From: Chiloscyllium plagiosum
Taxonomy: Eukaryota
NCBI RefSeq assembly: GCF_004010195.1
Contig: NC_057718.1
Coordinates: 80,543,500-80,585,489 of the forward strand
Length of the DNA stretch: 41,990 nt
Direction: 5' to 3'
Shown here: piece after piece, positions 1-34,087 of the stretch
How the letters are laid out: every line of letters begins with the position of its first letter
How positions within the stretch are numbered: position 1 is the first letter of the stretch
Notes under the pieces: generated by a model
Databases searched by the model: none
What the model was told of the DNA's origin: nothing
What the model saw: only the letters and a program-made list of their open reading frames with translations
Made by a program: the position numbers and the translations under genes

Positions 1-261
1 GCTGAAAAATGTGTTGCTGGAAAAGCGCAGCAGGTCAGGCAGTATCAAAGGAGCAGGAGAATCGACATTTCTGGCTCCCCCAAGTCCCTCCTCCCTACCT
101 TTTATCTTAGCCTGCTTTGCACACCCTCCTCATTCCTGAAGAAGGGCTTATGCCCGAAACGTCGATTCTCCTGCTCCTTTGATGCTGCCTGACCTGCTGC
201 GCTTTTCCAGCAATACATTTTTAAGCTCTGATCTCCAGCATCTGCAGTCCTCACTTCCTCC
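1..261 (+). mobile_element. Non-autonomous Penelope-like element terminus with fold-back (inverted) structure; may be cut by the window edge
   Basis: 1-71 is the near-perfect reverse complement of 156-226; contains a hammerhead-like core at 136-163; its tail (ccagcatctgcagtcctcact) recurs at ~26805-26829. Confidence 0.75.
131..168 (+). ncRNA. Minimal type I hammerhead ribozyme motif
   Basis: CTGAAGA(136-142)-A-GGGC ttat GCCC(144-155)-GAAA(156-159)-C-GTC(161-163); palindromic ACGT in place of stem III; short, imperfect stem I. Confidence 0.7.
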
Positions 262-1254
262 TTGGTCCATTGTCTTGAAGCCTTTACATAAACTTCCCCT
301 CAGTGATTGAATGTTCAACTCAGAATTTGTCCAATGATACCAATTTTGGATGGAACACAAGTCTCCAGCAGCCACACTGTCCCAACACAAATTTTGGTCT
401 TACTTCCCATTATCCTGCCTCTTTTTCTCCTCTTCTTTTGTTGACATCAAATGCAAACACACAATTCTTAGTTGAACCAGCAGCATGTGCATTGAATTGG
501 TTCATTCATCCTGAAGATAAATATATAAGGCATCCCCTAAGTGCTTCAAATAACAATGAACATTGCAGTGAGCTGAAATCTCTGCCTCTCTTATGGGGTG
601 CTGCCACTCTGGCAATTTTGAGGTGCCTACTCACTTGTTTCCACGTGCTGCTGAAACGATGTTAGTAGTTAACATATATTCTCAGCATACCTCCTGCATT
701 CATTGACAGTGATGCCAGAAATGGATGGCTCTGTGTATAGTGGACCACTCTCTCAGTGAAGAAGCTCATGCACTCAAAACCCTGAGCTACAGCAGAGCAT
801 ATTAATGAACGGGCAGTTCCATTCTGTGCCCACATCTCAGCACTATTTCAGAAAACCTTAAACTCAAGCATGCATCTGATTCTACTGGTCCAGAAATACC
901 CAGATTGTGAGTTCTGCTCTTTCCAGCTAAGCATAGCTGTGCCTGTCCTTCATTGTCCAAAGGATGAAGGATATAGATGTCATGTTAAATTTACCTTGTC
1001 AAACGTAGAATGCTATTTTGAAGTGCTTGGAACAGTGAGATCTGCTGACAACACAACAGTTAATCACACTGTGAGCAATATCTAGTCAAGCCTCCTGACT
1101 GATCAATAAGAAATGGGTTCCAAATGCATCTCTACGGAGGCACCAGAAAATGTGGAGCCCGAGCATAGGTTTTTGACCAGTTTCTGATCTGCTACACTCC
1201 TGTTTTCACTAACTGGGTATGGAATATAGAATGATAAAATTAATAATATATTAT

Positions 1255-1400
1255 TAGGAATAACAGAATAAGGGAGATAAATCAATGACTGAAAAGGTGA
1301 TGCAATGTGCAAAGATTCAGTTTCCTGGATCATTGTGATCTCTTCTGGGACAGAAAAGAATTGTTCAAAAAGAATGGACTGGACAGGAACCAATATCTAA
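1255..1400 (+). mobile_element. CR1 LINE ORF1 (SGNH esterase-like) fragment
   Basis: Encodes FLDHCDLFWDRKELFKKNGL; similar to 2705-2850 and 29095-29170. Confidence 0.7.
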
Positions 1401-2099
1401 ACATAATATACCAATATAATCTAAAATGGTAGACTGAGTGTAGCATGAATATTGCAGCTGCTCCTGAGTTGTAGGCCTTCTTGTGTAATTATATAATTCT
1501 TATGGTTTTATGTTTCAGAATAAGATTTTTATTTCGAATCATTTTGGAACTCTTGTAGACCATATAATTACAAAACAAAATGAAGAAGTAGAGATTTTTG
1601 AAATGTGGCAGGGGCTTCCACCTGTTTGTCAAGTATCAATCTGTAGAGAGATTTTATTTCTCTTTCTCTGCTTTAAATTTTTATATTTCTAAAAATGTAC
1701 ATCATTACAAAATCAAAAAAGAAAACATAAACATAGTAAAGGAGAGTGTTTTTACGAACATGAAGGACAGTTATTTTTCTGTGGACATTTTTTTCAAAGG
1801 ACTTTGTCAAGTTTTGATTTGCAGAGCAATTTTTTGCACATAAAAAGATACACGAAGGAGGAGAGTTTGTTTGTTTATATGTGGAGGTTGTGGAAAGGCC
1901 AACGTGAGATTGAGTTTTTTTAAATCTGGAGATTGAAAGATGAATGTTGGATTATTTGAAGAGGAGTCATTTTCTCATTTGATTTCTTTTTAATATTTAT
2001 ATGTTTACTTTGTTTTCTATTTTCATTCTTAATATTAAATCTGTCGGTAAAGAAAAGTAGTTTATTTTTGTATATATTCTATTGAGAGCTTCTTTTTTG

Positions 2100-3312
2100 G
2101 CTTAACGTCACTGAGGCCATACAAGAGATACTGAGTGTGATACTTAGTAGGTTTAGAAAAGTGATTACACAGAAGGATCTGTCAGATAGATGGTTGATTT
2201 CAAGAAAGGTAACAAGGTATTTAGGAAATCTTCTGCCGCTATTCCCCTCTCAAACAGATATTCCGTTTTGGGTACAGTTAAAAGAGATGGTCTCTCAGAG
2301 GAAAATAGAAGTGGTAGTCAGATCTTGGGCATGAAGAATGAATCTTATGATAAATGGGGTTTGTCAAAATTTAAAAGAAAATTGGTTTCGGGGGGCTCAC
2401 GTGTCAGGGGCAGACTGGAACTTCTGCAGCAGTGAGTGTGAATCTAGGATAGAATATTGCTTTCCAGGTGCCAGGTTTAAGGACATCTCAAAATATGTGA
2501 AACATATTGTCAAAAGGGACAGTAGAAGCTGGAAGTTGTTGTACACATTGGTAGAAATGGTCTTGGCTACAAGACCATTTCTAAGGCTGACCCTCTCGCA
2601 AAAGGTTAAGGCTTTGCAGAGTGAAGATTAAAAAACAGAACCTCCAATGTAGTAATCTCTGGTTTACTCCCAGTGCCAGGTTATAATGAGGGAAGGACTA
2701 AAAGAATAGGGAAGATAAATCAATGACTGAAGACATGGTGTAATGTGCGGGGATTCAGTTTCTTGGATCATTGGGATCTCTTCTTGGACAGAAAATACCG
2801 ATCAAAAAGTCTGTGTTTCACCTGAACTGGAAAGGGACCAAAATCCTGGGAGGGAGACTTGCTAGTTCTATTTCAGGAGCCTGTAAGCCTTCTTGGGGTG
2901 CTAGGGCGGGGGGGGGCGGTGGTGAAGACTTTGTACGTAGTGTAAGTAGGAAGAACTATGATGACGATTCTGAATCCGAAAAGTGCAAGCTAATTACTAA
3001 ACACAGACAAGTGCAAGTCAGAGAATGAAATAATTAAACTACATTTATTTCAGTGCAAGAGGTCTTACAGGAAAGGCTGATGAACTCAGGCATGTATGGG
3101 AATGTGGGACTGGATATTGAATCTATCACAGAAACTTTGCTGAGGGAAGGACAGGGATGGTAGCTCAATGTTCTAGATTTTAAATGTTGTGGGAAGGATC
3201 GAAGGAGAAGCATGGGGGTGGCATTTTCTGATGAAGTAGAACATTACTACTGTAATTAGAGAAGATATTTCTGAGGGATCATTTAGTGAAAATATTTGGA
3301 ATGAAATTAGAA
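2100..3312 (+). mobile_element. Degenerate CR1 LINE: ORF1 esterase and start of the AP endonuclease
   Basis: IPLSNRYSVL, CFPGARFKDI, VVISGLLPV, FLDHWDL and YFSARGLTGKADELR motifs with stops/frameshifts; aligns by eye to the element at 28-30 kb. Confidence 0.85.
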
Positions 3313-3987
3313 AAACATTTACAAGGTCTACCCCAGGTCGCTATTTATCTGGATGATGTGCTAATAACCGGGAAGAATATAAAGCATTCAGCAAATTTGG
3401 ACACTGATAAAACATTTCTCCAAGGCAGGTATATGCCTTAAAAGGGAAACATGTGTTTCAAGCAGTCCATGTGACCTACCTGGGCTACAGAGTCAACAAG
3501 ACCGTACCTGTTAGAAGATAAATTGAGGGCAACCGAAGGTGCCCAACCTCCCATGTATATATCAGAGCTCAGGTCTTTGCTTGGGTTAGTGAATTATGAT
3601 GTAAAATTCATACGTATTCTAGCCTCCATCCTGCACCCTTTACGTATGCTATTGCGAGAGGGTCAGCCTTAGAAATGGTCTTGTAGCCAAGACGAAGCCT
3701 TTAGGGAAGTGAAGAGGTATTGGCGCATGACAATCCCAAGCACGATGTGGTGCTGACGTACAATGGCTACCTGAATGGTATCGGAGTAGTGTTAGCTCAC
3801 CGGTGGCCCAGCAGAGACAAATACCCAATAGCATATGCTTCCCAACCTTCAGCTGATCCTGAACAAAAATATCCCCAGATAGAGAAGTAACTTGAGAGTG
3901 ATAAAGTTCCACCAATACTTTTATAGATGTTAGTTTGGAATAGCAACAGACCACAAGTCCCTGCTAGGGCCTTGAGCCATTTCGCAC
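3313..3987 (+). mobile_element. Ty3/Gypsy pol remnant (RT and RNase H)
   Basis: LQGLPQVAIYLDDVLITG (YxDD), ELRSLLGLVNY, GVVLAHRW, PIAYAS, TDHKSLLG; frameshifted. Confidence 0.85.
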
Positions 3988-6167
3988 TGTTATTATAGAC
4001 CCAACCAACCCCTTCAAAATATATCAGATATTAGTCTCGACCCTAATTTTTTCTTATTATACAAGTAACTGTAAGGTGTTGCATTCCACATGCAATTTGA
4101 TTGGTCAAACTACTCTACGTTAAGCAACACACATTTTATTCATATACTCTAGAGTCATAGAGATGTACAGCACGGAAACAGACCCTTCGGTCAAACTCAT
4201 CCATGCCAACGAGATATCCCAACCCAATCTCGTCTCACCTGCCAGCACATGGCTCATATCCCTCCAATTCCCTCCTATTCGTATGTCCATCCAGTTCCCT
4301 TTTAAATGTTACAATTGTACTAGCCTCTACCACTTCCTCTGGCAGCTCATTCCATACATGCACCATCCTCTGCCTGAAAAAGTTGCCCCTTAGGTTTCTT
4401 TTAAATCTTTCCCCTCTCATCCTAAACGTATGCCCTCTAGTTCTGGACTCCCTCACCTCAGGGAAAAGACTTTGTCTGTTTATCCTATTCATGCCTCTCA
4501 TGATTTATAAACCTCTATCAGGTCACCCCTCAGCCCCCGATGCTCCAGGCAAAACAGCCCTAGCCTATTCAACCTCTCCCTATAGCTCAAATCGTCCAAC
4601 CCTGGCAAGATTCTTGTAAATCTTTTCTGAACCCTTTCAAGTTTCACAACATCTTTCCAATAGGAAGGAGACAGAATTGCATGCAATATTCCAACAGTGG
4701 CCTAACCAATGTCCTGTACAGCCACAACATGACCTCCCAACTCCTGTACTCAATTCTCTGACCAATAAAGGAAAGAATACCAAATGCTTTCTTCACTATC
4801 CTATCTACCTGCGACTCTACTTTCAGGGAGCAATGAACCTGCACTCCAAGGTCGCTTTTTCTTCAAAAACACTCCCTAGGAGCTTATCAATAAGTGTACA
4901 AATCCTGCTAAGATTTGCTTTCCCAAAATGCAGCACCTCACTTTTATCGAAATTAACCTCCATCCGCTGCTTCTCAGCCCATTGGCCCATCTGATCAAGA
5001 TCCCGTTGTAATCTGAGTTATTATTCTTCGCTGTCCACTACACCTCCAATTTTGGTGTCATCAGCAAACTTACTAACTATACTTCTTATGCTAACATCCA
5101 AATCATTTAGATAAATGATGAAAAGTAGTGGATCCAGCACTGATCCTTGTGGCACTCCACTGGTCACAAGCCTCCAGTCTGATAAACAACCCTCCACCAC
5201 CACCACCCTCTGTCTTCTACGTTTGAGACAGTTCTGTATCCAAATGGCTAGTTCTCCCTGTATTCCATGAGACCTAAGCTTGCTAATCAGTCTCCCATGG
5301 GGAACCTTGTCGAATGCCTTACTGAAGTCCGCATAGATTATGTCTACCACTCTGCCCTCATCAATCCGCATTGTTACTTCAAAAAACTCAATCAAGTTTG
5401 TGAGACATGATTTCTCACGCACAAAGCCATGTTGACTATCCCTAATCAGTCCTTGCCTTTTCAAATACATGTACATCCTGTCCCTCAGGATTCCCTCCAA
5501 CAACTTGCCCACCACTGACGTCAGAATCACTGATCTGTAGTTCCCTGGCTTGTCCTTACCGCCCTTCTTAAACAGTAGCACCACGTTCGCCACCTTCCAG
5601 TATCCGGCAACTCACCTGTGACTATCGATGATACAAATATCTCAGCAAGAGGCCCAGCAATCACTTCCCTAGCTTCCCACAGCATTCTAGGGGACACCTG
5701 ATCAAATTCTGGGGATTTATCCACTTTTATGCATTTCAAAACATTCAGCACTTCCTCCTGTGTAACATGGACATTTTTCAAGATGTCACCATCTATTTCC
5801 GCACACTCTATATCTTCCATGTCTTTTTCCACAGTAAATACTGATGCAAAGTATTTGTTTAGTATCTCCCCCATTTTCTGTGGCTCCACACAAAGCTGTC
5901 TTGCTGATCTTTGAGGTGCCCTGTTCTCTCCCTAGTTACCCTTTTGTCCTTAAGGTAAAAACCCTTTGGATTCTCCTTAATTCTATGGGAGCTAGACCCC
6001 ACCAATTCAGGCTGCTTCTACTGTTGCAACTTGGCAAAAAAAGCCCAAGGCCTCTCAAGCTGTTTTCTTTTTTGGATTCAAATAGACAACCTGTCATCTC
6101 TGTCTTAAAACCTTTCTTCATAAAGATCAGGACAAAATACATTTCTTAAAACCATAGTATCGTCACA
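3988..6167 (-). mobile_element. Probable solo LTR inserted in Gypsy pol and itself interrupted by a CR1 (4150-5950)
   Basis: Minus strand starts TGTGAC and ends ATAACA; AATAAA near 4135-4140 on minus; Gypsy reading (LSHFAL/TDK) resumes right after 6167. Confidence 0.5.
4150..5950 (-). mobile_element. 5'-truncated CR1 LINE (RT and 3' tail)
   Basis: ORF 5021-5593: PGNYRSVILTSVVGKLLE, DFSKAFDKVPH, SGVPQGSVL, KFADDTK; ORF 4235-4501 RTRGH...WNELP; ctctatgactct tail; same family as 27478-31800. Confidence 0.95.
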
Positions 6168-6343
6168 CTGACAGATAAACTACTGGTGATGCTGTTGCTA
6201 GAAGAATCCATTCTGGTTTTAAACTTTCTGTTCTGTCACTGCTGACAATATCAGACTGTGGACACAAAAAGATCCTGTCCTGGCAAAAGTAAAACAGCTG
6301 GTGGAGATGGGGAAAACAGAAGGGCCATCACAACCAGAACTAA
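6168..6343 (+). mobile_element. Gypsy pol linker fragment
   Basis: VTADNIRLWTQKDPVLAKVKQLV, typical RNase H-integrase linker. Confidence 0.65.
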
Positions 6344-7477
6344 TTTGGAGAAGCTGGTGTTGAACTGGTCTGGACAGAGTTAAAAATCACAGAACACCAG
6401 GTTATAGTCCAACATGTTTATTTGGAAGCTTTCGAAGCTCTGCTGCTTCATCTGGCAGTTGTGAAGTAGGATCATAAGACACTGAATTTATAGCAAAGGA
6501 TTACAGTGATACAATGATACATCGAGCAAACCTAAACTGTTAAGTCTTTCATCTTTTAGAATGGATTTAATACGTAAATCCCAGAACTTCGTTTAAGTCA
6601 CATTCTCAAGATAATTTAAGGTTTTATAGCAAAAAGTGACATCTCAGCTCAGACCATGCCTTAAAGTTATGAGTCACGCCAATCTTGAGTCAGACCGGTT
6701 CCATTTCTAAAATGGAATTTATAAATATTGTATAGATTTTATTGACTGCTTCCAGGTTCTGCATTTGTTTGAGCAAAATAGAATCCATTTGCAAATATAA
6801 TTCTGCAAACACAAATTCACCCCGTTAACCTATAGGTGTGTGCCCATGCAGGGAAGAGAGTGCACGTAAGAGAGTGTGTGTTTGCACGTGTGCAAGATTG
6901 GTAAAGTGTGTGTGAGTGTGACGGGGTATCAGCCTGTGAGAGGATGCATACGTTGGTGTGAGCGTGGGTGGTGCATGTGCGCGCATATGAGAGAGGGTCT
7001 GCTTGATTGTGCAAGTATGTAAGAGTGTGTGTGCGAGAGTGTATAGTGCAGTGGGGTCACCTGTAATGTGACAGGAACCCAAGGGTCCTGTTGACGCCAT
7101 CCTCATGCCTACCAAACTTGGCTATCAGCCTCTGGTTGGCCACTTTATGATATTGCCTGTCCCAAAGTCCACCTTGAAGGATGATCACCCGAAGATCCGA
7201 GGCCAAATGTCCCTGACCGCTGAAGTGTTCCCCGACTGGGAGGGAACATCCCTGCTAGTGATTGTTGTGTGGTGTCCATTCATCCATTGGCGAGACCAAC
7301 CAGTTGCTACAATAATGTACCATGCCACGGGGCATCCTTGCCTGCAGCGTATGAAAGAGTCTGTGTCCTATGATCCTACTCCACTAGTTACCTGATGAAG
7401 AAACAACACTTCAAAAGCTAGTACTTCCAAATAAACCTGTTGGACTATAACCTGGTGTTGTATGATTATGAACTTTA
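6344..7477 (-). mobile_element. 5'-truncated Penelope-like element (GIY-YIG C-terminus, CA-rich 3' region) with an inverted terminal copy
   Basis: Minus strand 7060-7350: RCRQGCPVAWYI, MNGHHTTI, PVGEHFSGQGH, QRLIAKFG; ~6376-6485 is inverted relative to ~7360-7476. Confidence 0.85.
7389..7423 (+). ncRNA. Degenerate hammerhead ribozyme motif
   Basis: tac-CTGATGA-A-(decayed stem II)-AAAA(for GAAA)-GCTA-gta; stem I tac/gta intact. Confidence 0.55.
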
Positions 7478-7499
7478 ACCACATCTGAAAACTTTCTAG

Positions 7500-8702
7500 A
7501 TCTGCTAAGACATGTCATTATGGGCAGCAAAAATGATTATCCCAAACCAAGGTACTGGCTGAACTCCATCAGGGTCATCTAGGGGTGTCCAAAATGAAGG
7601 TATCAGTGGGAAGTTATGTCTGGTGGCCAAGATTAGATTCTGACATAACTGCATTGGTGGGGCAATGCCCAGAGTGCCAACAAGGATAAAAATGATTACC
7701 AACAGCTCCCCCATGTCCAAGGGAGTGACTAGGTAAACCCTGGACTTGATTACACATCGACTATGCCATTCATTTCATGGGGTGTATGTTCTTCATCATT
7801 GTGGACATCCATTCAAAGTGGCTAAACATTCAAACACCGTGATGACAACTGAATAGCTGCATCTTTTACAACACATGAACTTCCAGAGGTTTTGGTCACA
7901 GACAAAGGGAATTCGAGTATTGCCTAAAGTTGAATGGCATTCAGCAGAAAAGGACTTCTCAATACCATCCATCATCCTCTGGTCTGACAGAAAGAGTAGT
8001 CCAAACTTTGAAGGCAGGCTGAAAGAAATGGCCTATAACTTCACTCAATATCAAACTGTCCCGGTTCCTGTTTGAATATCGGACTACCCCTCACGCAACT
8101 ACAGGGACAGCTCTAGCAGCGTTGCTAATGGAGACACGACACTGTGCCAGATCGAACCTGGTCTTCCAGGACCTGGGAGGACAGGGTGAAATGGTATCAG
8201 AAACACCAATGCTGGACACAAGACTCCGCTAAGCAAGAGAGCCAGTTTACTTCAGGGGATGAAACCATGAGAATCGGCTGCATGGGTAAGAGGCATGATT
8301 GACACAAAGTCAGGTCCCATGTCATACAAAGTTAATGTTGGAATGCTGGTCCTGAACAAGCACACGGACTGCATGAAAGCTACAATCTTGAAACTTGGGC
8401 AGGAACATAACTTAGAACATCTGGCAAGGTTGTTAGAACCCATGGGTTCTCCCCCTTAGCCTATTGCCAAAATGACATGTGAGGACGAGATGGGCAAGGC
8501 AGTTGAAGCTTCAACGCCATTTCCTCCTGAAGAAGAAGGTGAATTTCATTCTGACATTTCAGACAGAAGAGATGGGCTACTGTCCGGTACGCGCCGTCAG
8601 TATCCAAGGCAGAGTCAAATGAACTAATCTGGTCCAAAAATGCCCCACAAGAAGCTACAGGCAAAAGAATAGGCCTATGTCCAGGACCAAGAGGGGGAGG
8701 GA
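7500..8702 (+). mobile_element. Gypsy integrase remnant ending in a polypurine tract
   Basis: LHQGHLG, SYVWWPRLDSDI, CPECQ, KPWT*LHIDY, YRTTPHATTG; PPT AAGAGGGGGAGGGA at 8689-8702 followed by TG. Confidence 0.9.
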
Positions 8703-9498: not shown

Positions 9499-9775
9499 TA
9501 GTGGGCAGTGAAGAAGGTGATCTAACCTTACAAAGAAATTTTGATCAATTGGGTCAATAGGCTGAGAAGTGGGAGATGAATTTAATTTGGATAAATGTGA
9601 GGTATTACATTTTGGTAATACAAACAAGGATTGGAGTTATATAGTTAATGGTGGGCATTGGGAGTGTTGTCGAACAGAATGATCTTTGGGTTCACATATA
9701 TAAACCTTTGAAATTTGTGTCACAGGCAGGCTGGTTAAGAAAGTATTTAGCATGCTTGTGTTCATTGCTAAAATC
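9499..9775 (+). mobile_element. CR1 RT fragment
   Basis: VGSEEG, DQLGQ*AEKW, FNLDKCEVLHFG, DLWVHI. Confidence 0.8.
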
Positions 9776-11222: not shown

Positions 11223-11640
11223 TTCAAATAAATGCATATGGCTTTTCTAATGATTATATTCAGGCCGCATCATGTTAATGTTTTGTAGATAAAGAGAAAT
11301 TAGAGAGAGAGAAAACTTGCTAAATGTGCCACATTACTTTGTTGACATATCAGGAAACACAAAGGCCATATTTTACTGAGAAAATAAGTCGATAAAGTGC
11401 ACACTGTTATTATGATGCAAATCCCAGCAGCTTCTTGCAAGCAAGAGATACCTTGTTAGTAGTGAATTGCCAGAAACAGCAGTGTTATGGGTAAATATTT
11501 TTTCAAACCAAACCAAACAATTGTATGGCTAGTTAATAGGGCATGTCAGAAGGTGCCTCACTCCAGTAAATTCAATCTGATCTGATTTTTTTTTTAGGCT
11601 AAGTGAATAGGATTGGGTGCAAATCTATGCTTATGCTGAT

Positions 11641-14045
11641 AAAAGCAAAGTACTGCAGATGCTAGAAATCTGAAATAAAAACAGGAGCTGCTACAGAAAC
11701 TCAGCAGGTCCAGCAACATCTTCTTGGAAAGGGAAACACAGTTAATGTCTGACTCTTCTCTAGAACTAAAAGCAGTTTTTTGTTATGCAGCAGGCAGAGA
11801 GGGAGGAGGAACAAGGAGAACAAATAGTAAGGGTGCTTAGTGCCAAAGACTAGAGTTACTGATGGTAGTGAAGGAAAGATAGAGATGTGAATAGGGTGTA
11901 AGTAAAAGTGTGAAAAGGAGAAAATAAATCTGCTCTGATAAGAATAAAGTTAACAAAACACAAACAAAACCCAGCAGTGTGTGTAGGGGAGAAGGGGTGG
12001 GGGTAATATTGGAGCATGTAAGAAAAATTAAATGAAGGACACAGAGGTCATGCTCTGAGGTTGTGGATTTTGATATTGAATCTTAGAGGCTAAAAGGTGC
12101 CACAGCAGAAAATGAGATGTTGTTCCTCTGTGATATGCTTCATTGGAACACTATAGCAGGGACAGAATTGAAATAGTTTGCCGGAGCATGGTGATTTATT
12201 AAAATGGCAAGCAAGTGGAACGTTAAGGTCATTTTCATGGATAGATTAGAGGTGTTCTCCTGATAGGGTGGAAAATGAGGACAAACAGAACTTATTATTG
12301 TTCTGGGAGGGAGGGGAAAGTGTAAGCGCAGAATTGTGGGACGTAAGTCTAACACAGCTGAGGGCTCTGTCAAACAGAGTGGGTATGGGGGGAGTCTATC
12401 GTTGAGGAAAAAGAATGCTATATCTGGGAAAATGGAATTAAATTCATTCAGGAAGCAGAGTTAGAGGAAGCGTATTCAAGGTAACTATGGAAGGCAGTGA
12501 GTTTGTAATGGATGTTGATTTGACAACCTATCCTTGGAAATGGGAACAGAGAAGTCAAGGAAGGGAAGAGAAGAGTCAAATCAACTAGATGAAGCTGAGA
12601 AAAGGATGGAAATTGAAGGCATAAATGAAGAACTTTTCCAATTCTGACCGAGAGCAGGAAGTAGCATGAATGACATAATTGATGTATCAGAGAGTTTGGT
12701 TGGGTGCCTGAATAGGACTGGAACAATGAATATTCCACATACCCTTAAAGACAAGCATAACTAGCACCCAATACAGGTACCCATAGTCACACTTTTGGTT
12801 TGATGAAAGTAAGATGTATTCAGAGAAAAGTTGTTCAAACTGAGAACAGGTTCAGCCAGATGAAGGAGGGTATTAGTGGAGGGGAATTGTTCATGTCTAT
12901 TCAAGGAAGAAATTGAGAACCTTCAGACCATCCTGATGGAAGTTGAGTGTGTAGAAGAGTTGCACATCCATGGTGAAGAGTAGGTGATTAGGGCTAGAAA
13001 ACTGGGAATTATGGAACTTACATAAAGGATCAGAAGAATCATCAATATAAATGGGAAGAAACTGAATAAGGGAGAAATAAAGAGTTTAGGTAGGAAAATA
13101 GACAATGGAGTGGGCAGGAATAGGTTAAAACAATGGGTCTGCCAGGGCAGTCCAGTTTGTAGATTTTGAGAAGGAAGTAGAAGTGTGGTAATGGGGATCT
13201 GAGGTTGAGAAGCTGTAGAGGAGAGATCTCCAGAGTAGATGAGGGCAGTAACAGTCTTAGAAATAACAGCTTGGTGTCCAGTGGTGATGTCATGATCCAG
13301 AAAGACATAGGAGAAAGTGCCTGAGAGTTGGCACTCAGCTTTTAGAAGGTAGAGGTTAGCACACTGGATGTTAGCAGAATCCCTCCAATCAGCAGGTTTC
13401 ATAACAAAATCAGGGTTAGACCTGAGAGAAGGGAGTGTAACAAACTCAGAAGGAGACAGATTAGAGTGGGCGAGAGGAGCAGAGAAATATCACACTGGCA
13501 GTTCTTGATGAAGAGATCGAGTGCAGGTAAAAAGCCAAAAGGAGGAGGTTCCTGGCAGAGGGGAGTACTGGAGAGAGATGAAAGAGCCTGTGTGCTGTGG
13601 AAATGAATTCTGACCAAAAAGTGCATATGGGGGCAAACATGATAGAAGAAAGGTTCATCCACATGTGCCAAAAATCATTGAGGCAGGGAGCATAAAGAAA
13701 TAAAACTATCATTGGATGTGCACAGATTATTCAGCATCATAGAGAAGAAGATCAGAAAGTTTAGTGAGGGAATGGAGTTGTAGAGAAGAAGAGGGAAGGA
13801 GGAATCCAGAGCAGCATCACCACCAGTGAATTTTTGCAGCTTGCATTCTTTAACACCTGAGAGGAAGAGGAAAAGATTTTTTCTGTTAGTGCATCAAATA
13901 AGGTGAAAAATAAAATGCAAATGGGGACCATGACAGGCTTTGAAATAGTGTGAAGCAGTGCTGAAGGCAAGGTTGGCCAAGAGTGTGCATACAGCAATAC
14001 ATGGCATTGAGTGTGGATCTCAGGATGCAGCGGGATACTTATTCA
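11641..14045 (-). mobile_element. Long degenerate Penelope-like element (RT and GIY-YIG)
   Basis: KPAD...LYLLKAECQLS...LDHD, FYFLLKIYKLDCPGRPIV, IHYKLTAFHSYLEY, LACHFN, EQHLIF...GTF*PLRFNI; terminus 11641-11767 resembles the arms at 21740-21940. Confidence 0.85.
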
Positions 14046-19247: not shown

Positions 19248-19722
19248 ATACACGAAGAAAAGATAATTTATTTTTGAGTATAATTCTAGTTCTTTTCAAG
19301 ACGAGAAATTTCCAAGATTGTCTTAATGAAAATAAATTTTTAGAAGGCCGAAGTAAAGATTTAAACTGCAACACAAAGACCCTGCAGGGCAAATACAGAA
19401 GCTGGTTGTTAAAATGCTTTGTCTATGCTGCTTGATACTTCCTCAAATAATTCTAGTAAAGTTATCAGGCATGATTTCCCCTTCATGTAGTCATGCTGAC
19501 TCTACATGATCATATTATGATTTCGAAATGCTCTGCTATTACAAATTTTATGATACACGACAAAAGAGAATTTATTTTTGAGTAGAATTCTAGTTCTTTT
19601 CAAGACAAGGGAAATTTCCAAGATTGTCTTAAAGAAAATAAATTTTAAAAAGGCCAAAGTAAAGATTTAAACTGCAACACAAAGACCCTGCAGGGCAAAC
19701 ACAGAAGCTGGTTGTTAAAATG
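19248..19722 (+). repeat. ~170-bp direct duplication flanking a 144-bp templated copy of 17641-17784
   Basis: 19248-19416 ~ 19553-19722; 19415-19558 ~ 17641-17784. Confidence 0.95.
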
Positions 19723-19807
19723 TTCTGTTCCTGACAATGCATACACAAATAGCAGTTTTTCAGATTAGTAGCTGCAAAATTAGTGTTCTTAAAAATAGAG
19801 CAGCACA

Positions 19808-21169: not shown

Positions 21170-22322
21170 CCACCCAGTCAGGACTCACTGTACACTCACA
21201 ACTGTGTAGCCAAATTCCATTCCAACACCACGTACAAGTTTGCTGATGACATCACTATGGTAGGATGAATGTCAACAACAATGAGTCAGAATACAGGAAG
21301 AAGATGGAGTGCTTGGTGTTGTAGTGCAATGATAACAATCTCTGAGTTAATGTCAGCAAAGCAAAAGAAGTAATCATTGACTTCAGGAAGAAAAGAGGAG
21401 GGCATGCCCTTAACTACATCAGTGGAGCCAAGGTGGAGACGCTTGATAGTGTCAAGTTCCTAGGAGTGACAATGACCAACAATCTTTCCTGAACCTCCCC
21501 CTTAGATGTGACAGTCAAGCAGGCAGAACTATACCTCCTCTTCCTCAGGCAGCTTAGGAAATTCGGCATATCTATAAGAACCCTCACCAACCTTTACAGA
21601 TGCACTATAAAAAGAATTCTATCCTGACGCATGTTGGTCAGGTATGGCAACTGCTCTGCCCAGCACTGTAAGAAACTACAGAAAGTTGTGTGCATGGCCC
21701 ATACCATCATGGAAGGCAACCTCCCATCCATGGAAACCAAAAGAGCTGCAGATGTTATAAATCAGAACAAAAACAGAAGTTGCTGGAAAAGCTCAGCAGG
21801 GCTGGCAGCATCTGTGAAGAGAAATCCAAGTTAACACTTTGGGTTCTGAGGAAGGGTCACCAGACCGAAAACATAAACTTTGATTTCTCTTCACAGATGT
21901 TGACAGACCTGCTGAGCTTTTCCAGCAACTTCTATTTTTATCTCCTATCCGTGAATTCTATTTATACTTCCCATTGCTGCAGAAAGGCTACTAACATCAT
22001 CAAGACCCCTCCCATCCTGATAATGCTCTCTTCCAACCTCTTCTGTCTGGCAGATATAGAAGCTTGAACACGTGTACCAAGAGGTTCAAGAACAGCTTCT
22101 TCTCTGCTGTTATTAGACTGCAGAATGGAAGTCTCTCACATCGTTGGTTTTGCTTTGTATACCTCCTGTGCAGCCATAATCTCGTATGACTCATTCCGTC
22201 TCAGCACCCTATGATCTGTATGTCCTTGTTTGCTCTGATCTGCCTGTTCTACTTGCAAAACAAAGCTTTTCACTGTACTTAAGTACATGTGACTACAATA
22301 AATAAATGAAATGAAATCAAAA
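21170..22322 (+). mobile_element. Rex1/Babar-type LINE (RT to 3' tail)
   Basis: SLYTHNCVAK, YKFADDITMVG, VIIDFRK, VKFLGV, FLRQLRKFG, RFKNSFFSAVIRL; AATAAA and (AAATG)n tail at ~22297-22320. Confidence 0.9.
21735..21941 (+). mobile_element. Fold-back PLE-derived mini-element with degenerate hammerhead, inserted in Rex1
   Basis: Arms ~21770-21835 and ~21876-21938 are inverted; gtt-CTGAGGA-A-GGGTC acca GACC-GAAA...aac at 21843-21878; flanking repeats 21721-21734 / 21942-21955 (11/14). Confidence 0.75.
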
Positions 22323-22324
22323 AT

Positions 22325-25734: not shown

Positions 25735-27030
25735 AACATAGGACATATAATAGGACACCACAGATACAGGTCCTTTGGCCCACATGTCTGTGCCAACAAT
25801 GTTGCTATTCTGAGCTAACCTAATTTGCCTGTGCATGGTCAGTCTCTGTCATTGTGTCTGTCTAAATGCTTCTTAAACATTTCTATTGTATCTGTTTCTA
25901 CCACTTCCCTGGCACAGCATTCCAGGCACCTGCTGCTCTCTGGTTAAAATTACTTGCCTCGCACATATCCCGGAAACTTTTCCTGTCTTGCCTTAAACGT
26001 ATGCCCTCTAGTATGACATTACCACCCTGACTATCCACTCTGTCGAGGTTTCTCATAATTTTATATACTTCTATCACATCACCCCTCAGCCTCTGATGTT
26101 TTAGCTTAAACAATCCAAATTTATTCAGCCTCTCCTTATAGCAAATGCACTCCAATCTAGTTAACTTATTTTGTATCCTCTCCGAAACCTCACATCCTTT
26201 CTATATTAAGGCTTCCAGAACTGCACACAATACTCCAAATGTGGCCTAACTAAAGTTTTATCCAATCACAATATGACTTGCAAACTTTTATCCTCAATGC
26301 CTAGACTAATAAAGGTAAGCATGCCATACTTCTTCTTTACCACGTTATTTACCACCTTATTTACTTGTGTTGACACTTTCATGGAAGTATGGATTTGCAC
26401 CCAAGGTCCCTCTGTATATCTGTATAGCCCTGCCATTTACTGTATGCTATCCTACTGCATTTGATCCCCAAAATGAATCATTTCACACATTCCTGGATAA
26501 AACTCCATCAGCCACTTCTCTGCCCAACTTTGCAACTGAGCTATATTCTGCTGTACCCTTTGACACCTTTCTTCACAACTCCACTCATGTTCATGTCATC
26601 AACAAACTTCCCAATCAGGCCACCTACATTTTTATCCAAATCATTCATATATATTGTAAACAACAGAGGTTCCAGCACTAATCCTTGTGGAATACCACTG
26701 GTCACAGACCTCAGGTCGGATAACCACCCCTCCACAACAAACCTCCATCTTCTATGACCAAGCCAATTTTGTTAAATGCCTGAAATGCTGTGCTTTTCTG
26801 AGTTCCAGCATCTGCAGTCCTCACTTTCTCCAAGCCAATTTTGTATCCAACTTACCAACACACCATGGATCCAATGTGACTTAAATTTCTGGAAGGACCT
26901 TGTAAAATCCATGTGATAACATCTACTGCCCTACCCTCATCAATCATCTTCATCACTACCTCAAAAAACTCAATAAAATTTGTGAGATATGACCTCCCCT
27001 GCAACAAAGCCATGCTGGCCTATCCCTACC
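25735..27030 (-). mobile_element. Degenerate CR1 LINE (RT and 3' end)
   Basis: SGIPQGLVLEPLLFTIYMNDLD, KFVDD, YKERLNKFGLF, RLRGDVIEVYKIM. Confidence 0.9.
26773..26829 (+). mobile_element. 57-bp PLE-terminus insertion with perfect 15-bp TSD
   Basis: CCAAGCCAATTTTGT at 26758-26772 and 26830-26844; the insert matches the tail at ~225-260. Confidence 0.85.
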
Positions 27031-28599
27031 ATGACTTCAATCTATTCTACAAAGGTCCTCAATTAATACAATTGCCACTTGAAGGGCCTCACATTGCGCT
27101 TACACAGATTCTGTGTGCTCAGACTGAAAAGTTGTTGTAATCACACAGCCACTTTTCATTTCCAGACTGCATTTCTGATTTACATGGGAAAGTTGCTGGC
27201 TGTTCATCTCAGTAATGTTGTCTTTATCAGAGACCATTTATCATGTCGTTATCAATTGTTTCTGTGTATTTCTATTTCTGTTGTTGGGTTGCTGTGGATC
27301 TCTGATTCTGATGATTGAGGTGCATTCACCTCTTCCTGATCAGTCTTCTGCAATTGAAGAACACCATCTGCATGTCCAGTCATTCATTTTCATCATGTAT
27401 GATCGAGGTAATAGTTGCTCCTAACAGTTAGCATTTGGGCAAGGTTTTATTGAGACCGTTGGATGGTTCAACTCTGACTCTGTGGAGGGCGGGAAAAATT
27501 TCTGGCTGTAAGCGCTGCTCCTTTTTTTTGAGGTATTTTAGGTGTTGGAGATGATTTCCTCGAATTCCAGGAGCAGCAATTACTATTTTATACGCTGTTG
27601 CATTGTTTTGCAACTTTGGAAAAAAAAGTCAAAACAACAGCAGTTTTAAAAGGGAAAAGAGCAGACAAAGCAAGCACATGGTGAGGACAGTGCAGGAGAC
27701 AGAGAGAGAGAACCTGCACAGTTACCGCCTTTGCTGTTTGAATTCGTGTATCGCTGGACATCAGAGTGCATCTGGGAAAATTAACAAACAGTGAAATTCA
27801 CAACTAATCTTGGAGGAACTGTTGGGCGAAGTTCACAGCACAGAAGCAGATAAGTTAATTGTCGTTTTAAGTCTGTCCAAGAGAAAGGCTGCAGTAGTGA
27901 GTACAATGGATTCTTTCTTGATTATATGTTTTTGGAGATAAGTCTGTTGATTAAACTTAAAATATAAGCCATAGCTATTAATTTAACCTGGGGCAGTGTT
28001 TGTAGAGGAATAAGACGGTGTTATTTTTCTGAGTCTGTACATTGTGAAGGAGCAAAAATAGCCTTTACAGTGATATGGACTTGTTGTCAGATGTGGGAGT
28101 TTAAAGAGAGTTTAAGGGTTACTGCGGATTATATCTGCCATAAATGCTGATACAGGAAGGGGGAAAGTCTCAGATACAGTCACATAGACGGGTTAACTCC
28201 AGGAAGGGTAAGAGAGGTAGGCAGCTAGTGCAGGAGTCTTTTGTGGATATACCCATTTCTGTGTGTGTTGTTTCCCTGGTGCCAGGATCAAGGATGTCTC
28301 AGAGAGGGTGCAGAATGTTCTCACAGGGGAGAGGGGCCAGCAGGAGGTCATTATCCACATTGGAACCAACGACAGTGGAAGGGAAAAGGTTGAGACTCTG
28401 AAGGGAGATTACAGAGAGTTAGGCAGAAATTTAAAAAGGAGGTCCTCAAGGGTAGTAATATCTGGATTACTCCCAGTGTTATGAGCTAGTGAGGGCAGGA
28501 ATAGGAGGATAGAGCAGATGAATGCTTGGCTGAGGAGCTGGTGTATGGGAGAAGGATTCACATTTTTGGATCATTGGAACCTCTTCTGGGGTAGAAGTG

Positions 28600-28980
28600 N
28601 NNNNNNNNNNNNNNNNNNNNNNNNNNNNNNNNNNNNNNNNNNNNNNNNNNNNNNNNNNNNNNNNNNNNNNNNNNNNNNNNNNNNNNNNNNNNNNNNNNNN
28701 NNNNNNNNNNNNNNNNNNNNNNNNNNNNNNNNNNNNNNNNNNNNNNNNNNNNNNNNNNNNNNNNNNNNNNNNNNNNNNNNNNNNNNNNNNNNNNNNNNNN
28801 NNNNNNNNNNNNNNNNNNNNNNNNNNNNNNNNNNNNNNNNNNNNNNNNNNNNNNNNNNNNNNNNNNNNNNNNNNNNNNNNNNNNNNNNNNNNNNNNNNNN
28901 NNNNNNNNNNNNNNNNNNNNNNNNNNNNNNNNNNNNNNNNNNNNNNNNNNNNNNNNNNNNNNNNNNNNNNNNNNNNNNNN
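28600..28980. other. Assembly gap
   Basis: Run of N. Confidence 1.
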
Positions 28981-30459
28981 AGGTCCTCAAGGGTAGTAAT
29001 ATCTGGATTACTCCCAGTGTTATGAGCTAGTGAGGGCAGAAATAGGAGGATAGAGCAGATGAATGCTTGGCTAAGGAGCTGGTGTATGGGAGAAGGATTC
29101 ACATTTTGGATCATTGGAATCTCTTTTGGGGTAGAAGTGACCTGTACAAGAAGGACGGATTGCACCTAAATTGGAAGGCGACTAATATACTGGCAGGGAA
29201 ATTTGCTAGAACTACTTGGGAGGATTTAAACTAGTAAGGTGGGGGGTGGGACCCAGGGAGATAGTGAGGAAAGATATCGATCTGAGATGGGTACAGCTGA
29301 GAACAGAAGTGAGTCAATCAGTCAGAGCAGGCAGGGACAAGGTAGGACTAATAAAGTGAACTGCATTTATTTCAATGCAAGGGGCCTAACAGGGAAGGCA
29401 TATGAACTCAGGGCATGGTTAGCAACATGGGACTGGGATATCATAGCAATTACGGAAACATGGCTCAGGGATGGACAGGACTGGCAGCTTAATGTTCCAG
29501 AATACAAATGCTACAAGAAGGATAGAAAGGGAGGCAAGAGAGGAGGGGGAGTGGCATTTTTGATAAGGGATAGCATTACAGCTGTGCCAAGGGAGGATAT
29601 TCTTGGAAATACATCCAGGGAAGTTATTTGGGTGGAACAGAGAAATAAGAAAGGGATGATCACCTTATTGGGATTGTATTATAGACCACCCAATAGTAAG
29701 AGGGAAATTGAGGAACAAACTTGGAAGGAGATCTCAGCTATCTGTAATAATAGGGTACTTATGGTAGGGAATTTTAACTTTCCAAACATTGACTGGGATT
29801 GCCATAGTGTTAAAGGTTTAGATGGAGAGGAATTTCTTTAGTGTGCACAAGACAATTTTCTGAATCATTATGTGGATGTACCTACTAGAAAAGGTGCAAA
29901 ACTTGACCTACTCTTGGGAAATAAGGCAGAGAAGGTGACTTAGGTGTCAGAGGGGGAGCACTTTGGGGCCAGCGACCATAATTCTATTCATTTTAAAATA
30001 GTGATGGAAAAGGATAGACCAGATCTAAAAGTTGAAGTTCAAAATTGGAGAAAGGCCAATTTTGACGATATTAGAAAAGCTGATTGGAGGCAGATGTTCG
30101 CAGGTAAGGGGACGGCTGGAAAATGGGAAGCCTCCAGAAATGAGATAACAAGAATCCAGAGAAAGTATATTCCTATCAGGGTGAAAGGGAAGTCTGGTAG
30201 GTATAGGGAATGCTGGATGACTAAAGAAATTGAGGGATAGATTGAGTGAATCCTTAGAAGAGTATAAAGAAAGTAGGAATATACTTAAGAGAGAAATCAG
30301 GAGGGCAAAATGGGGACATGAGATAACGTTGGCAAATGCAATTAAGGAGAATCCAAAGGGTTTTTACAAATATATTAAGGACAAAAGGGTAACTAGGGAG
30401 AGAATAGGGCCCCTCAAAGATCAGCAAGGCGACCTTTGTGTGGAGCCACAGAAAATGGG

Positions 30460-30767
30460 NNNNNNNNNNNNNNNNNNNNNNNNNNNNNNNNNNNNNNNNN
30501 NNNNNNNNNNNNNNNNNNNNNNNNNNNNNNNNNNNNNNNNNNNNNNNNNNNNNNNNNNNNNNNNNNNNNNNNNNNNNNNNNNNNNNNNNNNNNNNNNNNN
30601 NNNNNNNNNNNNNNNNNNNNNNNNNNNNNNNNNNNNNNNNNNNNNNNNNNNNNNNNNNNNNNNNNNNNNNNNNNNNNNNNNNNNNNNNNNNNNNNNNNNN
30701 NNNNNNNNNNNNNNNNNNNNNNNNNNNNNNNNNNNNNNNNNNNNNNNNNNNNNNNNNNNNNNNNNNN
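30460..30767. other. Assembly gap
   Basis: Run of N. Confidence 1.
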
Positions 30768-31809
30768 TCCCCATGGGAGACTGATTAGCAAGGCTAGATC
30801 TCATGGAATACAGGGAGGACTAGCCATTTGGATACAGAACTGGCTCAAAGGTAGAAGACAGAGGGTGGTGGTGGAGGGTTGTTTTTCATTCTGGAGGCCT
30901 GTGACCAGTGGAATGCCACAAGGATCGGTGCTGGGCCCTCTACGTTTTGTCTACATAAATGATTTGGAGCGAGCATAAGTTTGCAGATGACACCAAAATT
31001 GGAGGTGTAGTGGACAGCGAAGAGAGTTACCTCAGATTACAACAGGATCTGGACCAGATGGGCCAATGGGCAGAGAAGTGGTGGATGGAGTTTAATTCAG
31101 ATAAATGCGAGGTGCTGCATTTTGGGAAAGCAAATCTTAGCAGGACTTATACACTTAATGGTAAGGTCCTAGGGAGTGTTGCTGAAGGAAGAGACCTTAG
31201 AGTGCAGGTTCATAGTTCCTTGCAGCACGGTGTGTTGTTTCCCTGGTGCCAGGATCAAGGATGCCAGAGAGGGTGCAGAACCCGTCCAAGGATGCCAGAG
31301 AGGGTGCAGAATGTTCTCACGGGGGAGAGGGGCCAGCAGGAGGTCATTGTCCACATTGGAACCAACGACGTTGGAAGAGAAACGGTTGAGACTCTGAAGG
31401 GAGATTACAGAGAGTTCAGCAGAAATATAAAAAGGAGGTCCTCAAGGGTAGTAATATCTGGATTACTCCCAGTGAGGGCAGGAATAGGAGGATAGAGCAG
31501 ATGAATGCTTGGCATAGGTTTAGGGTGAGAGGGGAAAGATATAAAAGAGATCTGTGCGACAACGTTTTCACACGGAGGGCGGTATGTGTATGGAAGCAGC
31601 TGCCAGAGGAAGTGGTGGAGGCTGGTACAATTGCAACATTTAAAAGCCAATTGGATAGGTATATGAATAGGAAGGGTTTAGAGGGATATGGGCCGGGTGC
31701 TGGCAGCTGGGACTAGATTGGGTTGGGATATCTGGTCGGCATGGACGGGTTGGACCGAAGGGTCTATTTCCATGCTATACATCTCTATGACTCTATGACC
31801 TAACTCTGA

Positions 31810-32302
31810 TTTGGAGATGCCGGTGTTGGACTGGGGTGTACAAAGTTAAAATCACACAACACCAGGTTATAGTCCAACATGTTTAATTGGAAGCACACTA
31901 GCTTTCAGAGCGTCATTCCTTCATCAGGTGATAGTGGAGGGCTCAATCCTAACACACAGAATTTATCGTAAAAATTTACAGTGTGATGTAACTGAAATTA
32001 TACATTGAAAAGTTGATTGTTAAGTCTTTCATCTGTTTGAATACAATGATAGTTTCACTTCTTTCATGTGTAAATCACAAAACCTTTTTTTAAAACTTGC
32101 AAATCAGGTTAGCTGTTAACAATGGGTGATAGCTAGACAATATGTTGAAGGTGTTGGCCCACTGTGTTCTCTGTCTATGCCATGATGTTTAGATTGATTC
32201 TAATCTAAAAAATGAGATAGCAGAGTTTTACATGAATGCATGCAGTTTTTGAGCAAAGTACAATGTAACCCTGCATTGTACTTTGCTCAAAAACTGCATG
32301 CA
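31810..32302 (-). mobile_element. PLE 3' terminal fragment, ending in a 29-bp perfect hairpin
   Basis: 31810-31935 similar to 6344-6460 and antisense to 33960-34087. Confidence 0.8.
31896..31930 (-). ncRNA. Minimal hammerhead ribozyme motif
   Basis: Minus strand: cac-CTGATGA-A-GGAAT gac GCTCT-GAAA-G-CTA-gtg; stem I cac/gtg; palindromic AGCT. Confidence 0.7.
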
Positions 32303-32304
32303 AT

Positions 32305-33220
32305 ATCACTGGTAGTCATTGAACCTTCCTCCTAACAGTCCACTGTGACAACGTAGTCAGTTCCTGTGAGTGCAAAGAGATCTGCTCCCAATTTCATCTA
32401 TAATCTGTCTGGATATTATGTATCATCACTGGCTCTATGGCTTGCTCAGCTTGATACTGACTGAAAGCACTGCGCTAGCTAATGTGGTCCTTAATTTTGT
32501 TGCTCATGTTTAGCCAGCTGATCACATGGGACACATCTCTTGCCTTCTCAGACTTGTTTAATTCCTTGGTGGCTTGTTGCACATTGCCATATCGCCTCTC
32601 AACTTCCTTTGTACAATATGCCATCTTTATATGCCAATGTACTGTTCTAGCAACAGATATGTCCTTGATTCTCTCTGGACATCCTACTTTGTTGGATGGC
32701 TTTCTTCATTTGACCAAGGCGCTTGTCTCATGTATTTACTCTTTGTTGGGCTGATGACTTGCAGAGCATGCCAAGGTGCTGATTCACATTGAATCTGGAA
32801 TATTTCCATTGTAGTAAATTCTACTTTCTTTAATTTTGAGGGTGGGGGGGGGTTGCTCTCGACAGCATGTTTGCAATATGCATCTACTCTTCCTTTGCCT
32901 GACATCCAAATAATATTTCTGCAACTGAGGTACCATTCTTTGGAGCTGCTTTAGAACAAACAGTAGAAGTTTGAGGAAAATGCTTCAAATTGGCTTGTGG
33001 TCAGACTCAATTGTCACTTTGTTTTTTCCATGTAAATATTGATGAAAATATTCACAAGCAAAGGCAATGACTAGGCATATTGCTCAGTCTCGGCACAACT
33101 GTTTGTGTTATCACCTTGGATGCGAGTGTGACCAGTTGACCGAGCTGCATGAGGATTGCTTCAAATCCTGTCTCACTGGCATCACACTGGTGTTACCACC
33201 TATATCGCAGTATTGGACTT
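32305..33220 (-). mobile_element. Decayed Gypsy pol (integrase region)
   Basis: Minus strand: KARDV...WLNMSNKIKDHIS and MKLGADLFALTGTDYVVTVD; the distal boundary is uncertain. Confidence 0.6.
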
Positions 33221-33224
33221 CGAA

Positions 33225-34087
33225 CTTCGGACTGTGTCAATGCAGAGTTGCCGAGCAAAGGATAATAGCCAAGTTCGGAACCCATGAGCACAGCCTCAAC
33301 TGGTATCTTGGGTTCATGTCACACTACAGGTGACCCCCATTACACTATACACTCTTGCACATGATCGCACTCACACAGACTCTCTCTCATACATACGCCT
33401 TCTCTCTCATGCACACACTCTCACGCACACCCTCTCACAGGCATGTACTCCGTCACACACGCACACTCACGAACACGCTCATATGCACACACACACACAC
33501 GCTCGCACAGTCTCTCCATCTCTCCCACATACACACACAAATGCGCTTTCTCCCACACACAGACATCTGCATTTGCAGATTTGTCTTTGCATATACATTC
33601 TATTTTTTTCAAAAAGCACCCAATCTGTAAGCAATCAGTCCATATGACATTTTAATAATTCCTCCTTTGGAAATAGCACCAGTCTGACTCAAGATTGGGA
33701 TACAGACAGACTCTCGCCTCATATCTTTAATTCGTTGTCTGAGCTGACATGTCACCTTTTTATACTGATAAACCTTAAGTTATCTCGGGGTTGTGACTTG
33801 AAGAAGTTCTGGGATTTACGTATTAATCAATCAAAACCTGCATCCCCATTCAAAATGATTAAAGACTTAACAGCAATCTAGGTTTGTTCAATACATTACA
33901 TCAGTTGTATGACACAATGATCTTTTTTTATAAATTCTGAGTCCTATGATCCTACCCCACTAGCGACCTGAAGAAAAAGCAACACTTCAAAAACTTGTAC
34001 TTTCAAACAAACCTGTTGGACTATAACCAGTTGCTGTGTGATTTTTAACTTGGTCCACCCCAGTCCAACACCAACACCTCCACATTA
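33225..34087 (+). mobile_element. 5'-truncated Penelope-like element
   Basis: RVAEQRIIAKFGTHEHSLNWYLGFMSHYR*, CA-rich tract 33345-33560, decayed hammerhead CTGAAGA at 33968; same family as 6344-7477. Confidence 0.85.

Follow-up and report, generated by a model that had tools for sequence, protein, structure and literature searches.

The six hammerhead-like motifs in the stretch of Chiloscyllium plagiosum DNA analyzed here (41,990 nucleotides, hereafter the window) are very probably minimal type I hammerhead sequences in the end repeats of truncated Penelope-like element (PLE) insertions that likely belong to the Neptune clade; the window copies are likely inert. This reading is based on the termini shared between copies, the remnants of GIY-YIG and reverse transcriptase (RT) regions, 5' truncation, inverted 5' pieces, two target-site duplications (TSDs), and the position-wise decay of the motifs.

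All six motifs lie where the original prediction placed them and on the strands it gave, except that C3 of the copy at 6428 falls at 6454 and not at 6456. We compared the motifs by a positional parse in structural register. The core C3 U4 G5 A6 N7 G8 A9 / G12 A13 A14 A15.1 / U16.1 H17 is complete in two of them (136 and 31899), and each of the other four (7392, 21846, 33968, and 6428) carries a single core substitution. The extra A after A9 that had been claimed for all copies is indeed present in all six, and a palindromic segment at 15.1-16.1 replaces stem III in four (ACGU in 136; AGCU in 31899, 7392, and 6428) and is lacking in 33968 and 21846. G10.1-C11.1 is a G-C pair in three motifs (136, 7392, and 6428), and stem II is fully paired in 136 only. 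The preservation of the motifs had been overstated: the copies at 6428 and 33968 are decayed as described, but those at 7392 and 21846 are also damaged, and 136-163 alone is intact.

The intact family A copy (136..163, plus strand) has 11/11 core bases, the extra A at 143, the palindrome ACGU, four of four stem II pairs, and a GUC triplet with a predicted cut at 163/164; its stem I is weak (C-G, U-A, U.U, A-U). The family B copy at 31899..31927 (minus strand) combines an intact core, the palindrome AGCU, a CUA triplet, and a stem I of 3 bp with a stem II weakened by G10.1 opposite U and one A-C mismatch. Family B also contributes the copy at 7392..7420 (plus strand; G12>A, stem II with 3/5 pairs, palindrome AGCU) and two dead copies, one at 6426..6454 (minus strand), with U4>A and deletion of the cleavage site and the 3' strand of stem I, and one at 33968..33996 (plus strand), with G10.1>A, G12>A, a broken palindrome, and U at position 17. 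The decayed family C copy (21846..21875, plus strand) has no palindrome and can be parsed either by substitution, with G12>A and C11.1>G, or by indel, with a 1-nt deletion and a nonpalindromic loop III; G12 is probably lost.

Could such strings be chance matches? By itself the core pattern exceeds chance just modestly, because the descriptor counts are near those of shuffled sequence: a strict descriptor gave 1 match versus a mean of 0.13 in 15 block-wise shuffles (2/15 with one match), and a relaxed one gave 3 versus a mean of 0.73 (1/15 reached 3). Rfam likewise returned no hammerhead family at an E-value of ≤10 and only 7 weak unrelated matches, and the motifs also lack stem III. A looser descriptor allowing one core and one stem mismatch gave 18 matches versus a mean of 6 in shuffles; 14 further matches from it were not accepted: the family profiles did not score any of them as a hammerhead-bearing terminus, and the three inspected (3228, 8527, and 38649) had no PLE tail. 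The motifs are nevertheless real, since their flanks are homologous (E 1e-19 to 6e-75 for family B pairs; E 1e-7 for family A versus C) and the family is large in reads. The core stands at the equivalent place in homologous PLE termini and, as first noted, with differing stem II sequences, of which the families have three types, each complementary. We give the chance explanation almost no credence; flank homology has largely refuted it already. As to covariation within a family, the four family B copies offer only two anecdotal compensatory pairs (10.2-11.2 as G-C or A-U, and the third stem I pair as C-G or U-A). Viral contigs and metagenome contigs each yielded 0 matches to the family B tail motif.

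The placement of the motifs in PLE termini, as originally proposed, holds directly through coding remnants for family B and through tail homology for families A and C. On the minus strand, 7057-7254 has 12 protein matches, the best being a shark protein with 77% identity; the Pfam cutoff for GIY-YIG was passed by one of six matching proteins scanned, and a second fell just below it. Mapped back to the window, the homologues cover 7060-7355 (E 5e-31), where the reading frame is broken, and 33238-33330 (E 3e-11), which is the last 31 codons of the GIY-YIG domain; both lie upstream of family B hammerheads. A HMMER search with 13190-13489 (minus strand) gave 70 protein matches, whereas a word-based protein search with the longer piece 12923-13489 (minus strand) found nothing among 964 candidates. 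Five of ten scanned homologues of 13190-13489 matched both RVT_1 and, at the C terminus, a GIY-YIG domain (E ≤ 0.01), and such homologues map back to about 12420-13875, an RT-region remnant. The two domains occur jointly in homologues only; the window has separate remnants of each, and four decayed window frames matched 0 Pfam families. None of the coding remnants in the window belongs to family A, and its link to PLEs is thus a chain of 77-78% tail matches, in which the tail of the RT-bearing remnant resembles family C (77%, E 4e-8) and C resembles A (78%, E 1e-7).

A CX2-5CXXC linker marks Neptune/Nematis (PMC8557442). It is present in 8 of the 9 homologues checked and missing or unrecognizable in the window copies. 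Judged from the linker of the homologues, the parent elements likely belong to the Neptune clade; an initial assignment to Poseidon was dropped after the linker check.

The motifs are dispersed, as had been stated, but they represent five insertions and not six, because a single element carries both the motif at 6428 (in its body) and that at 7392 (in its inverted 5' piece). Its family B body (6341..7355, minus strand) retains a GIY-YIG C-terminal remnant, 3' UTR, pLTR, and tail and sits within a Gypsy-type LTR-retrotransposon fragment; the adjacent inverted piece, a 5'-truncated pLTR, lies on the opposite strand (7360..7476, plus strand). The family A insertion (1..262) consists of an inverted arm (1-75, a reverse copy of 152-226), which may continue past the window start, and a 5'-truncated body (76-262) that stops at the common 3' end of the family. 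The family C insertion (21740..21945) is also a fold-back, with an inverted arm at 21740-21845 and a sense copy that begins about 3 nt upstream of C3. Family B is further represented by a 5'-truncated pLTR copy (31806..32042, minus strand) and a PLE 3' end (33238..34087, plus strand) with the GIY-YIG end, 3' UTR, pLTR, and tail. An old decayed PLE, absent from the first reading, occupies 11640..13875 (minus strand) and combines RT-region remnants with an A/C-type terminus (11640-11769) that has lost part of its hammerhead.

Other fragments have no hammerhead: a family A 3' tail (26777..26831, plus strand) with a 16-bp TSD (1 mismatch), an A/C-type tail (37841..37922, minus strand), and a family B tail-only fold-back (39889..40016) with a 15-bp TSD (1 mismatch). 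TSDs of 15 to 16 bp were found at two of the seven termini tested, both tail-only, and at 3/200 random pairs; the other five termini had none. 5' truncation with an adjacent inverted copy occurs at 1-262, 6341-7476, 21740-21945, and 39889-40016, and opposite-strand joints are found family-wide in reads of family A.

The novelty of this architecture is low, as it matches a published consensus, and this kind of element was described in 2014 (PMC4209133). The minimal hammerheads that Cervera and De la Pena (2014, PMC4209133) reported from the pLTRs of metazoan PLEs have the type I core, G10.1-C11.1, and a short stem I in common with the window motifs, and their consensus has the same form, with an extra base between 9 and 10.1, a palindromic 15.2-16.2, and no stem III. 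They too occur as several families per genome, mostly as single copies in truncated PLEs, and they too form opposite-strand pairs, 100 to 700 bp apart there and 940 bp here. Stem II differs, with 7 to 8 bp in Schistosoma and 4 to 5 bp here. EN+ PLE units of the Neptune clade (Craig et al. 2021, PMC8557442) share the C-terminal GIY-YIG domain, 5' truncation, an adjacent inverted 5'-truncated copy, a hammerhead near the 3' end, and the CX2-5CXXC linker (here in homologues), whereas the window contains decayed fragments only, without a full ORF. PAc, the Poseidon element of the anole studied by Frangieh et al. (2024, PMC11167929), likewise has a pLTR hammerhead, fixed 3' ends downstream of it, and copies with an uncut site, but it is of a different clade by linker motif, and its ORF starts at stem II. 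Our literature search found no paper naming these shark families.

How would such copies arise? In active parent elements, cleavage after position 17 would take place only once the palindromes of two copies pair as a shared stem III, or with help from the protein that the element encodes, as in other, published PLEs. We hypothesize that the copies arose when reverse transcription was primed internally on RNA that was mostly uncut and that, once inserted, they decayed neutrally through CpG deamination. Element RNA is likely the product of read-through transcription on both strands.

Sequencing reads bear on the earlier suggestion of a very large ribozyme population. Family A is very large, but a correspondingly large number of working ribozymes does not follow, with one of six window copies intact, that copy predicted to be folded away, and CpG decay across the family. 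We placed 110,411 and 86,104 family A contigs in two species; from the summed depth, divided by 31 and by the depth of the flanks, we obtain about 46,000 to 50,000, an order-of-magnitude hint only, as depth is not copy number. The load here is probably above the 4,000 and 9,000 minimal hammerheads reported for coelacanth and Xenopus tropicalis (PMC4209133), in excerpts that name no shark. CpG changes at C11.1, G12, 15.2, 16.2, and C17 amount to 8-12% in DNA run X1, 11-17% in DNA run X10, and 7-21% among the RNA reads; the DNA runs show C>T and G>A symmetrically. The stem I U.U mismatch of 136-163 is apparently common to most family A copies, the repairing variant reaching 2% (X1) and 0.1% (X10). 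The core may be retained in a large fraction of family A copies, and some loci elsewhere may therefore cleave. Family A RNA accounts for 3,838 of 12,955,460 reads, in both directions; run X22 contributed 0 reads and carries no weight. The RNA run X21 has no read-end pile at the cut site, although its poly(A) single-cell library cannot show 5'-OH ends; no RNA joints appear among the 15 entries listed for X21, a library type unsuited to circular RNA.

Because the window has a single intact copy, and that one is predicted to be folded away, its motifs are likely inert leftovers. In the predicted fold of a transcript of 1-262, positions 156-164 pair with the inverted arm (probability of being unpaired ≤0.05) and stem I is not formed, which would bury 136-163 in a fold-back of about 70 bp. 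Minimum free energy (MFE) folds of monomer and dimer contained no hammerhead fold, but MFE is uninformative for such motifs. The intact core, the favorable GUC triplet, and the existence of family RNA could also be taken to mean that 136-163 has been co-opted to cut a host transcript. We consider this extremely improbable: in a very large family an intact copy is expected by youth alone, the copy has no tandem partner and, by the predicted fold, lies buried, and a scan of 149 of 208 nonrepeat ORFs, which would miss short exons, revealed no host exon.

The upstream edge of the motif raises another possibility, namely, that family A is mainly a separate nonautonomous, hammerhead-headed retroposon of about 130 nt (retrozyme-like), whose RNA template begins with the 5' strand of stem I, which is moved by PLE protein in trans, and which is partly arranged in head-to-tail tandems able to form active dimers. 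Heterogeneous AT-rich flanks precede 132/133 in 564 and 437 contigs (X1) and 570 contigs (X10), with an agreement of about 0.3, and similar flanks follow 261/262. Summed depth just upstream of the motif drops to 14% (X1) and 4% (X10) of tail depth, although upstream subfamily divergence likewise reduces depth. In family C the copy begins 3 nt upstream of C3, but such a ribozyme-edge start is seen in only one of six window copies, and the others reach 32 to 901 nt further upstream. Positions 132-134 are ATT, the preferred site of the anole PLE endonuclease, and hence cleavage or microhomology could make the boundary. Joints of 262 to 132 (13 and 18 contigs) and of 256 to 132 (11 and 11 contigs) point to head-to-tail units, some of them 131-nt tandems, but these joints are tens of contigs among about 10^5 placed, and the window has no tandem. 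Read pile-ups at 141, 212, and 226 were not accepted as ends and are taken as alignment clipping or subfamily variants. PLE-derived non-LTR retrozymes, built from pLTR hammerhead units, have been described as tandem repeats in one cartilaginous-fish genome in a 2026 preprint (bioRxiv 10.64898/2026.07.22.740005); the mean chondrichthyan unit there is 363 bp, compared with 131 nt here. On balance, we regard the separate retroposon as doubtful, and it refines the reading of truncated PLE insertions more than it replaces it.

It is also conceivable, but we think unlikely, that active elements keep the motif as a protein-binding or promoter/boundary structure, with self-cleavage incidental or absent. 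In the anole Poseidon element, core mutants inserted normally in vitro, the substrate was mainly uncut RNA, and the cut site had no RNA-seq ends (PMC11167929); Naiads thrive without hammerheads (PMC8557442). Among the 18 loose ends listed for genomic family A reads, none forms a 5'-end pile at 164. Against a purely structural role, weak cleavage of PLE motifs, as dimers or in the presence of protein, has been published (PMC4209133, PMC11167929), and catalytic positions, beyond the stems, appear to be spared from subfamily variation. Within 40 listed of 99 variant rows, 17 constrained non-CpG positions have 0 variants, while variants occur at 3 of 5 free positions (N7 and loop II; Fisher P = 0.006, post hoc); compared with the downstream tail, variant placement in the same 40 rows is not significant (P = 0.12).

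These considerations allow a bolder proposal, which we regard as doubtful. Sharks might carry among the largest vertebrate loads of minimal hammerheads, with tens of thousands intact, mostly in a nonautonomous hammerhead-headed unit of about 130 nt that begins with the 5' strand of stem I rather than at the cut site. The upstream edge would then mark where the copied RNA starts; the fold would aid propagation in its uncut form, with cleavage confined to rare 131-nt tandems.

In itself the locus is unremarkable. Families A, B, and C carry the minimal hammerheads of PLEs into shark-like genomes, and their abundance looks sufficient for a natural data set. With insertion ends in the thousands, one could locate the start and stop points of PLE reverse transcription with respect to the ribozyme, and such data bear on the role of the PLE hammerhead.

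Ends of Penelope-like elements (PLEs) in the window have been retrotransposed, truncated and partly inverted, and their minimal type I hammerhead decays after insertion. A position-by-position parse bore out the coordinates and strands of all six motifs in the original prediction, as well as its roughly three families: A at 136-163 (+), B at 6428 (-), 7392 (+), 31899 (-) and 33968 (+), and C at 21846 (+). The extra A after A9 was found in six of six motifs and the 4-nt palindrome in four, the remaining two lacking it. The places thus stand, but intactness does not, since 136-163 is the sole intact motif. The hammerhead cleavage-site rule is NUH, and the motif at 6428 has lost its cleavage site and carries U4>A. 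The core is kept at 31899 with a weak stem II, the motif at 21846 is decayed whichever of two parses is used, and 7392 and 33968 both carry G12>A, at the residue described as the general base (PMC6155905).

The first hammerhead descriptor gave one match in the window versus a shuffle mean of 0.13, and the second gave three versus 0.73 (15 shuffles), counts that by themselves just modestly exceed chance. An Rfam search of the window returned no hammerhead match. The case for real hammerheads is made by flank homology, and we regard chance matches as highly improbable.

The four family B motifs represent three insertions. One of these consists of a 5'-truncated PLE body (6341-7355, -) and, at 7360-7476 (+), its inverted 5' piece; hence motifs 6428 and 7392 derive from one event and not from separate insertions. 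This insertion sits inside a Gypsy-type fragment. The Gypsy-type element, with an RNase H fragment at 3705-3887 (+) and an integrase zinc-binding fragment at 7537-7686 (+), is broken up by LINE pieces and the family B insertion. Coding remnants of a GIY-YIG C-terminus (7060-7355, -; 33238-33330, +) match 12 proteins, the best at 77% and another at 66%, labelled Chiloscyllium punctatum and Mustelus asterias by their source, which backs the predicted shark-like assignment.

Families A and C are fold-back insertions (1-262 and 21740-21945) whose tails are related. The inverted arms 1-75 (A) and 21740-21845 (C) both end within the stem II 3' strand, which may be coincidence; family A read joints range over 166-228. 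An old decayed PLE at 11640-13875 (-), absent from the original prediction, retains RT-region remnants and an A/C-type terminus, its hammerhead partly deleted, and ends in a tail similar to those of families A and C. Its homologues bear RT plus GIY-YIG. Of nine homologues of the PLE remnants checked for a CX2-5CXXC linker, eight have one, which points to a probable place in the Neptune (or Nematis) clade over Poseidon. Three further PLE termini (26777, 37841 and 39889) have no hammerhead. Target-site duplications of 15-16 bp were found at two of seven termini tested versus 3 of 200 random pairs, and both flank termini of this hammerhead-less kind: a piece of family A tail, 55 nt long and with an internal deletion (26757-26844; 16 bp), and a tail-only family B fold-back (39889-40016; 15 bp). 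One arm of the latter starts just past the predicted family B cleavage site, at most a few bases beyond it, and this one instance would fit the copying of cleaved RNA. PLE-derived sequence totals about 5.2 kb, or 13% of called bases in the window.

The window also holds many LINE-like RT/endonuclease fragments (4150-5980, 28263-31795, 34747-35706 and 37191-37805), presumably resembling CR1, local duplications of 144 and 177 bp at 92-97% identity (17641-17784 and 19248-19728), and two N gaps (28600-28980 and 30460-30767); a duplicated 160-bp flank at the first gap suggests an assembly artefact. A 66-bp near-perfect palindrome (32237-32302, 91% self-complementary) is probably a small DNA-transposon relic, its Rfam miRNA matches being weak and sub-threshold.

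Four public runs were aligned to window positions 76-300 at 80% likeness, which covers family A only. Two DNA contig sets, one under the organism label that matches the window best (X1) and one from a second organism (X10), aligned 110,411 and 86,104 contigs, numbers that are not copy numbers. An RNA run (X21) matched with 3,838 of 12,955,460 reads, in both directions, and the fourth (X22) yielded 0 reads and carries no weight. Among the 40 variant rows listed of 99, variants within the motif sit on N7, loop II and CpG sites. None of 17 constrained non-CpG positions but three of five free positions had such a row (p 0.006, post hoc); measured against the tail, the same contrast was not significant (p 0.12). 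In the DNA runs, CpG changes at C11.1, G12, 15.2, 16.2 and C17 stand at 8-17% and show strand symmetry, the pattern expected if inserted copies undergo neutral deamination. No pile of genomic ends appeared at 164 among the 18 rows listed (733 further rows), nor did RNA read ends form a pile in X21, a weak test given that this poly(A) single-cell library is blind to cleavage ends.

Many family A contigs stop at 132/133 and 256-262, beyond which the sequence is AT-rich and varies between contigs, and 13 and 18 contigs carry 262>132 tandem joints. Family A could be a separate unit of about 130 nt headed by the hammerhead, which we think possible but doubtful: of the six copies in the window, just one has its start at the edge of the ribozyme, and ATT at 132-134 allows an endonuclease or microhomology origin of the boundary. 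This ATT is the common family A 5' end, where the tandem joints land too, and is the site favoured by an anole PLE endonuclease (PMC11167929).

Published work on such elements suggests that cleavage by the hammerhead would require a dimer or assistance from a protein (PMC4209133, PMC11167929) and that copies would arise when RNA that is mostly uncut is reverse-transcribed from internal priming. The intact 136-163 motif is without a partner at its locus and, in a predicted structure of a transcript including the inverted arm, 156-164 is paired and stem I absent; the two motifs in the 6341-7476 insertion lie on opposite strands, each broken. We therefore consider the window copies likely inert. 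Minimal hammerheads in PLE termini are upheld; a population of working ribozymes is not supported. A non-catalytic role of the motif agrees with anole data, though we rate it unlikely; co-option of the intact copy by the host is scarcely credible, with no host exon in 149 scanned of 208 non-repeat ORFs.

The motifs share their form with the 2014 minimal hammerhead consensus (PMC4209133), and inverted 5' pieces and tails like these also occur in PLEs of PMC8557442. PLE expansion is reported in whale shark introns (10.1101/443036), a term search of 10.1101/2025.06.08.657570 gave no match, and a 2026 preprint (bioRxiv 10.64898/2026.07.22.740005) describes PLE-related hammerhead tandems in one chondrichthyan. 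Shark terms are absent from two supplements of the 2014 paper, and literature searches (Repbase and Dfam aside) turned up no paper that names these shark families, which the supplements of the 2026 preprint may list. The window motifs add members to an already described class of PLE hammerheads.
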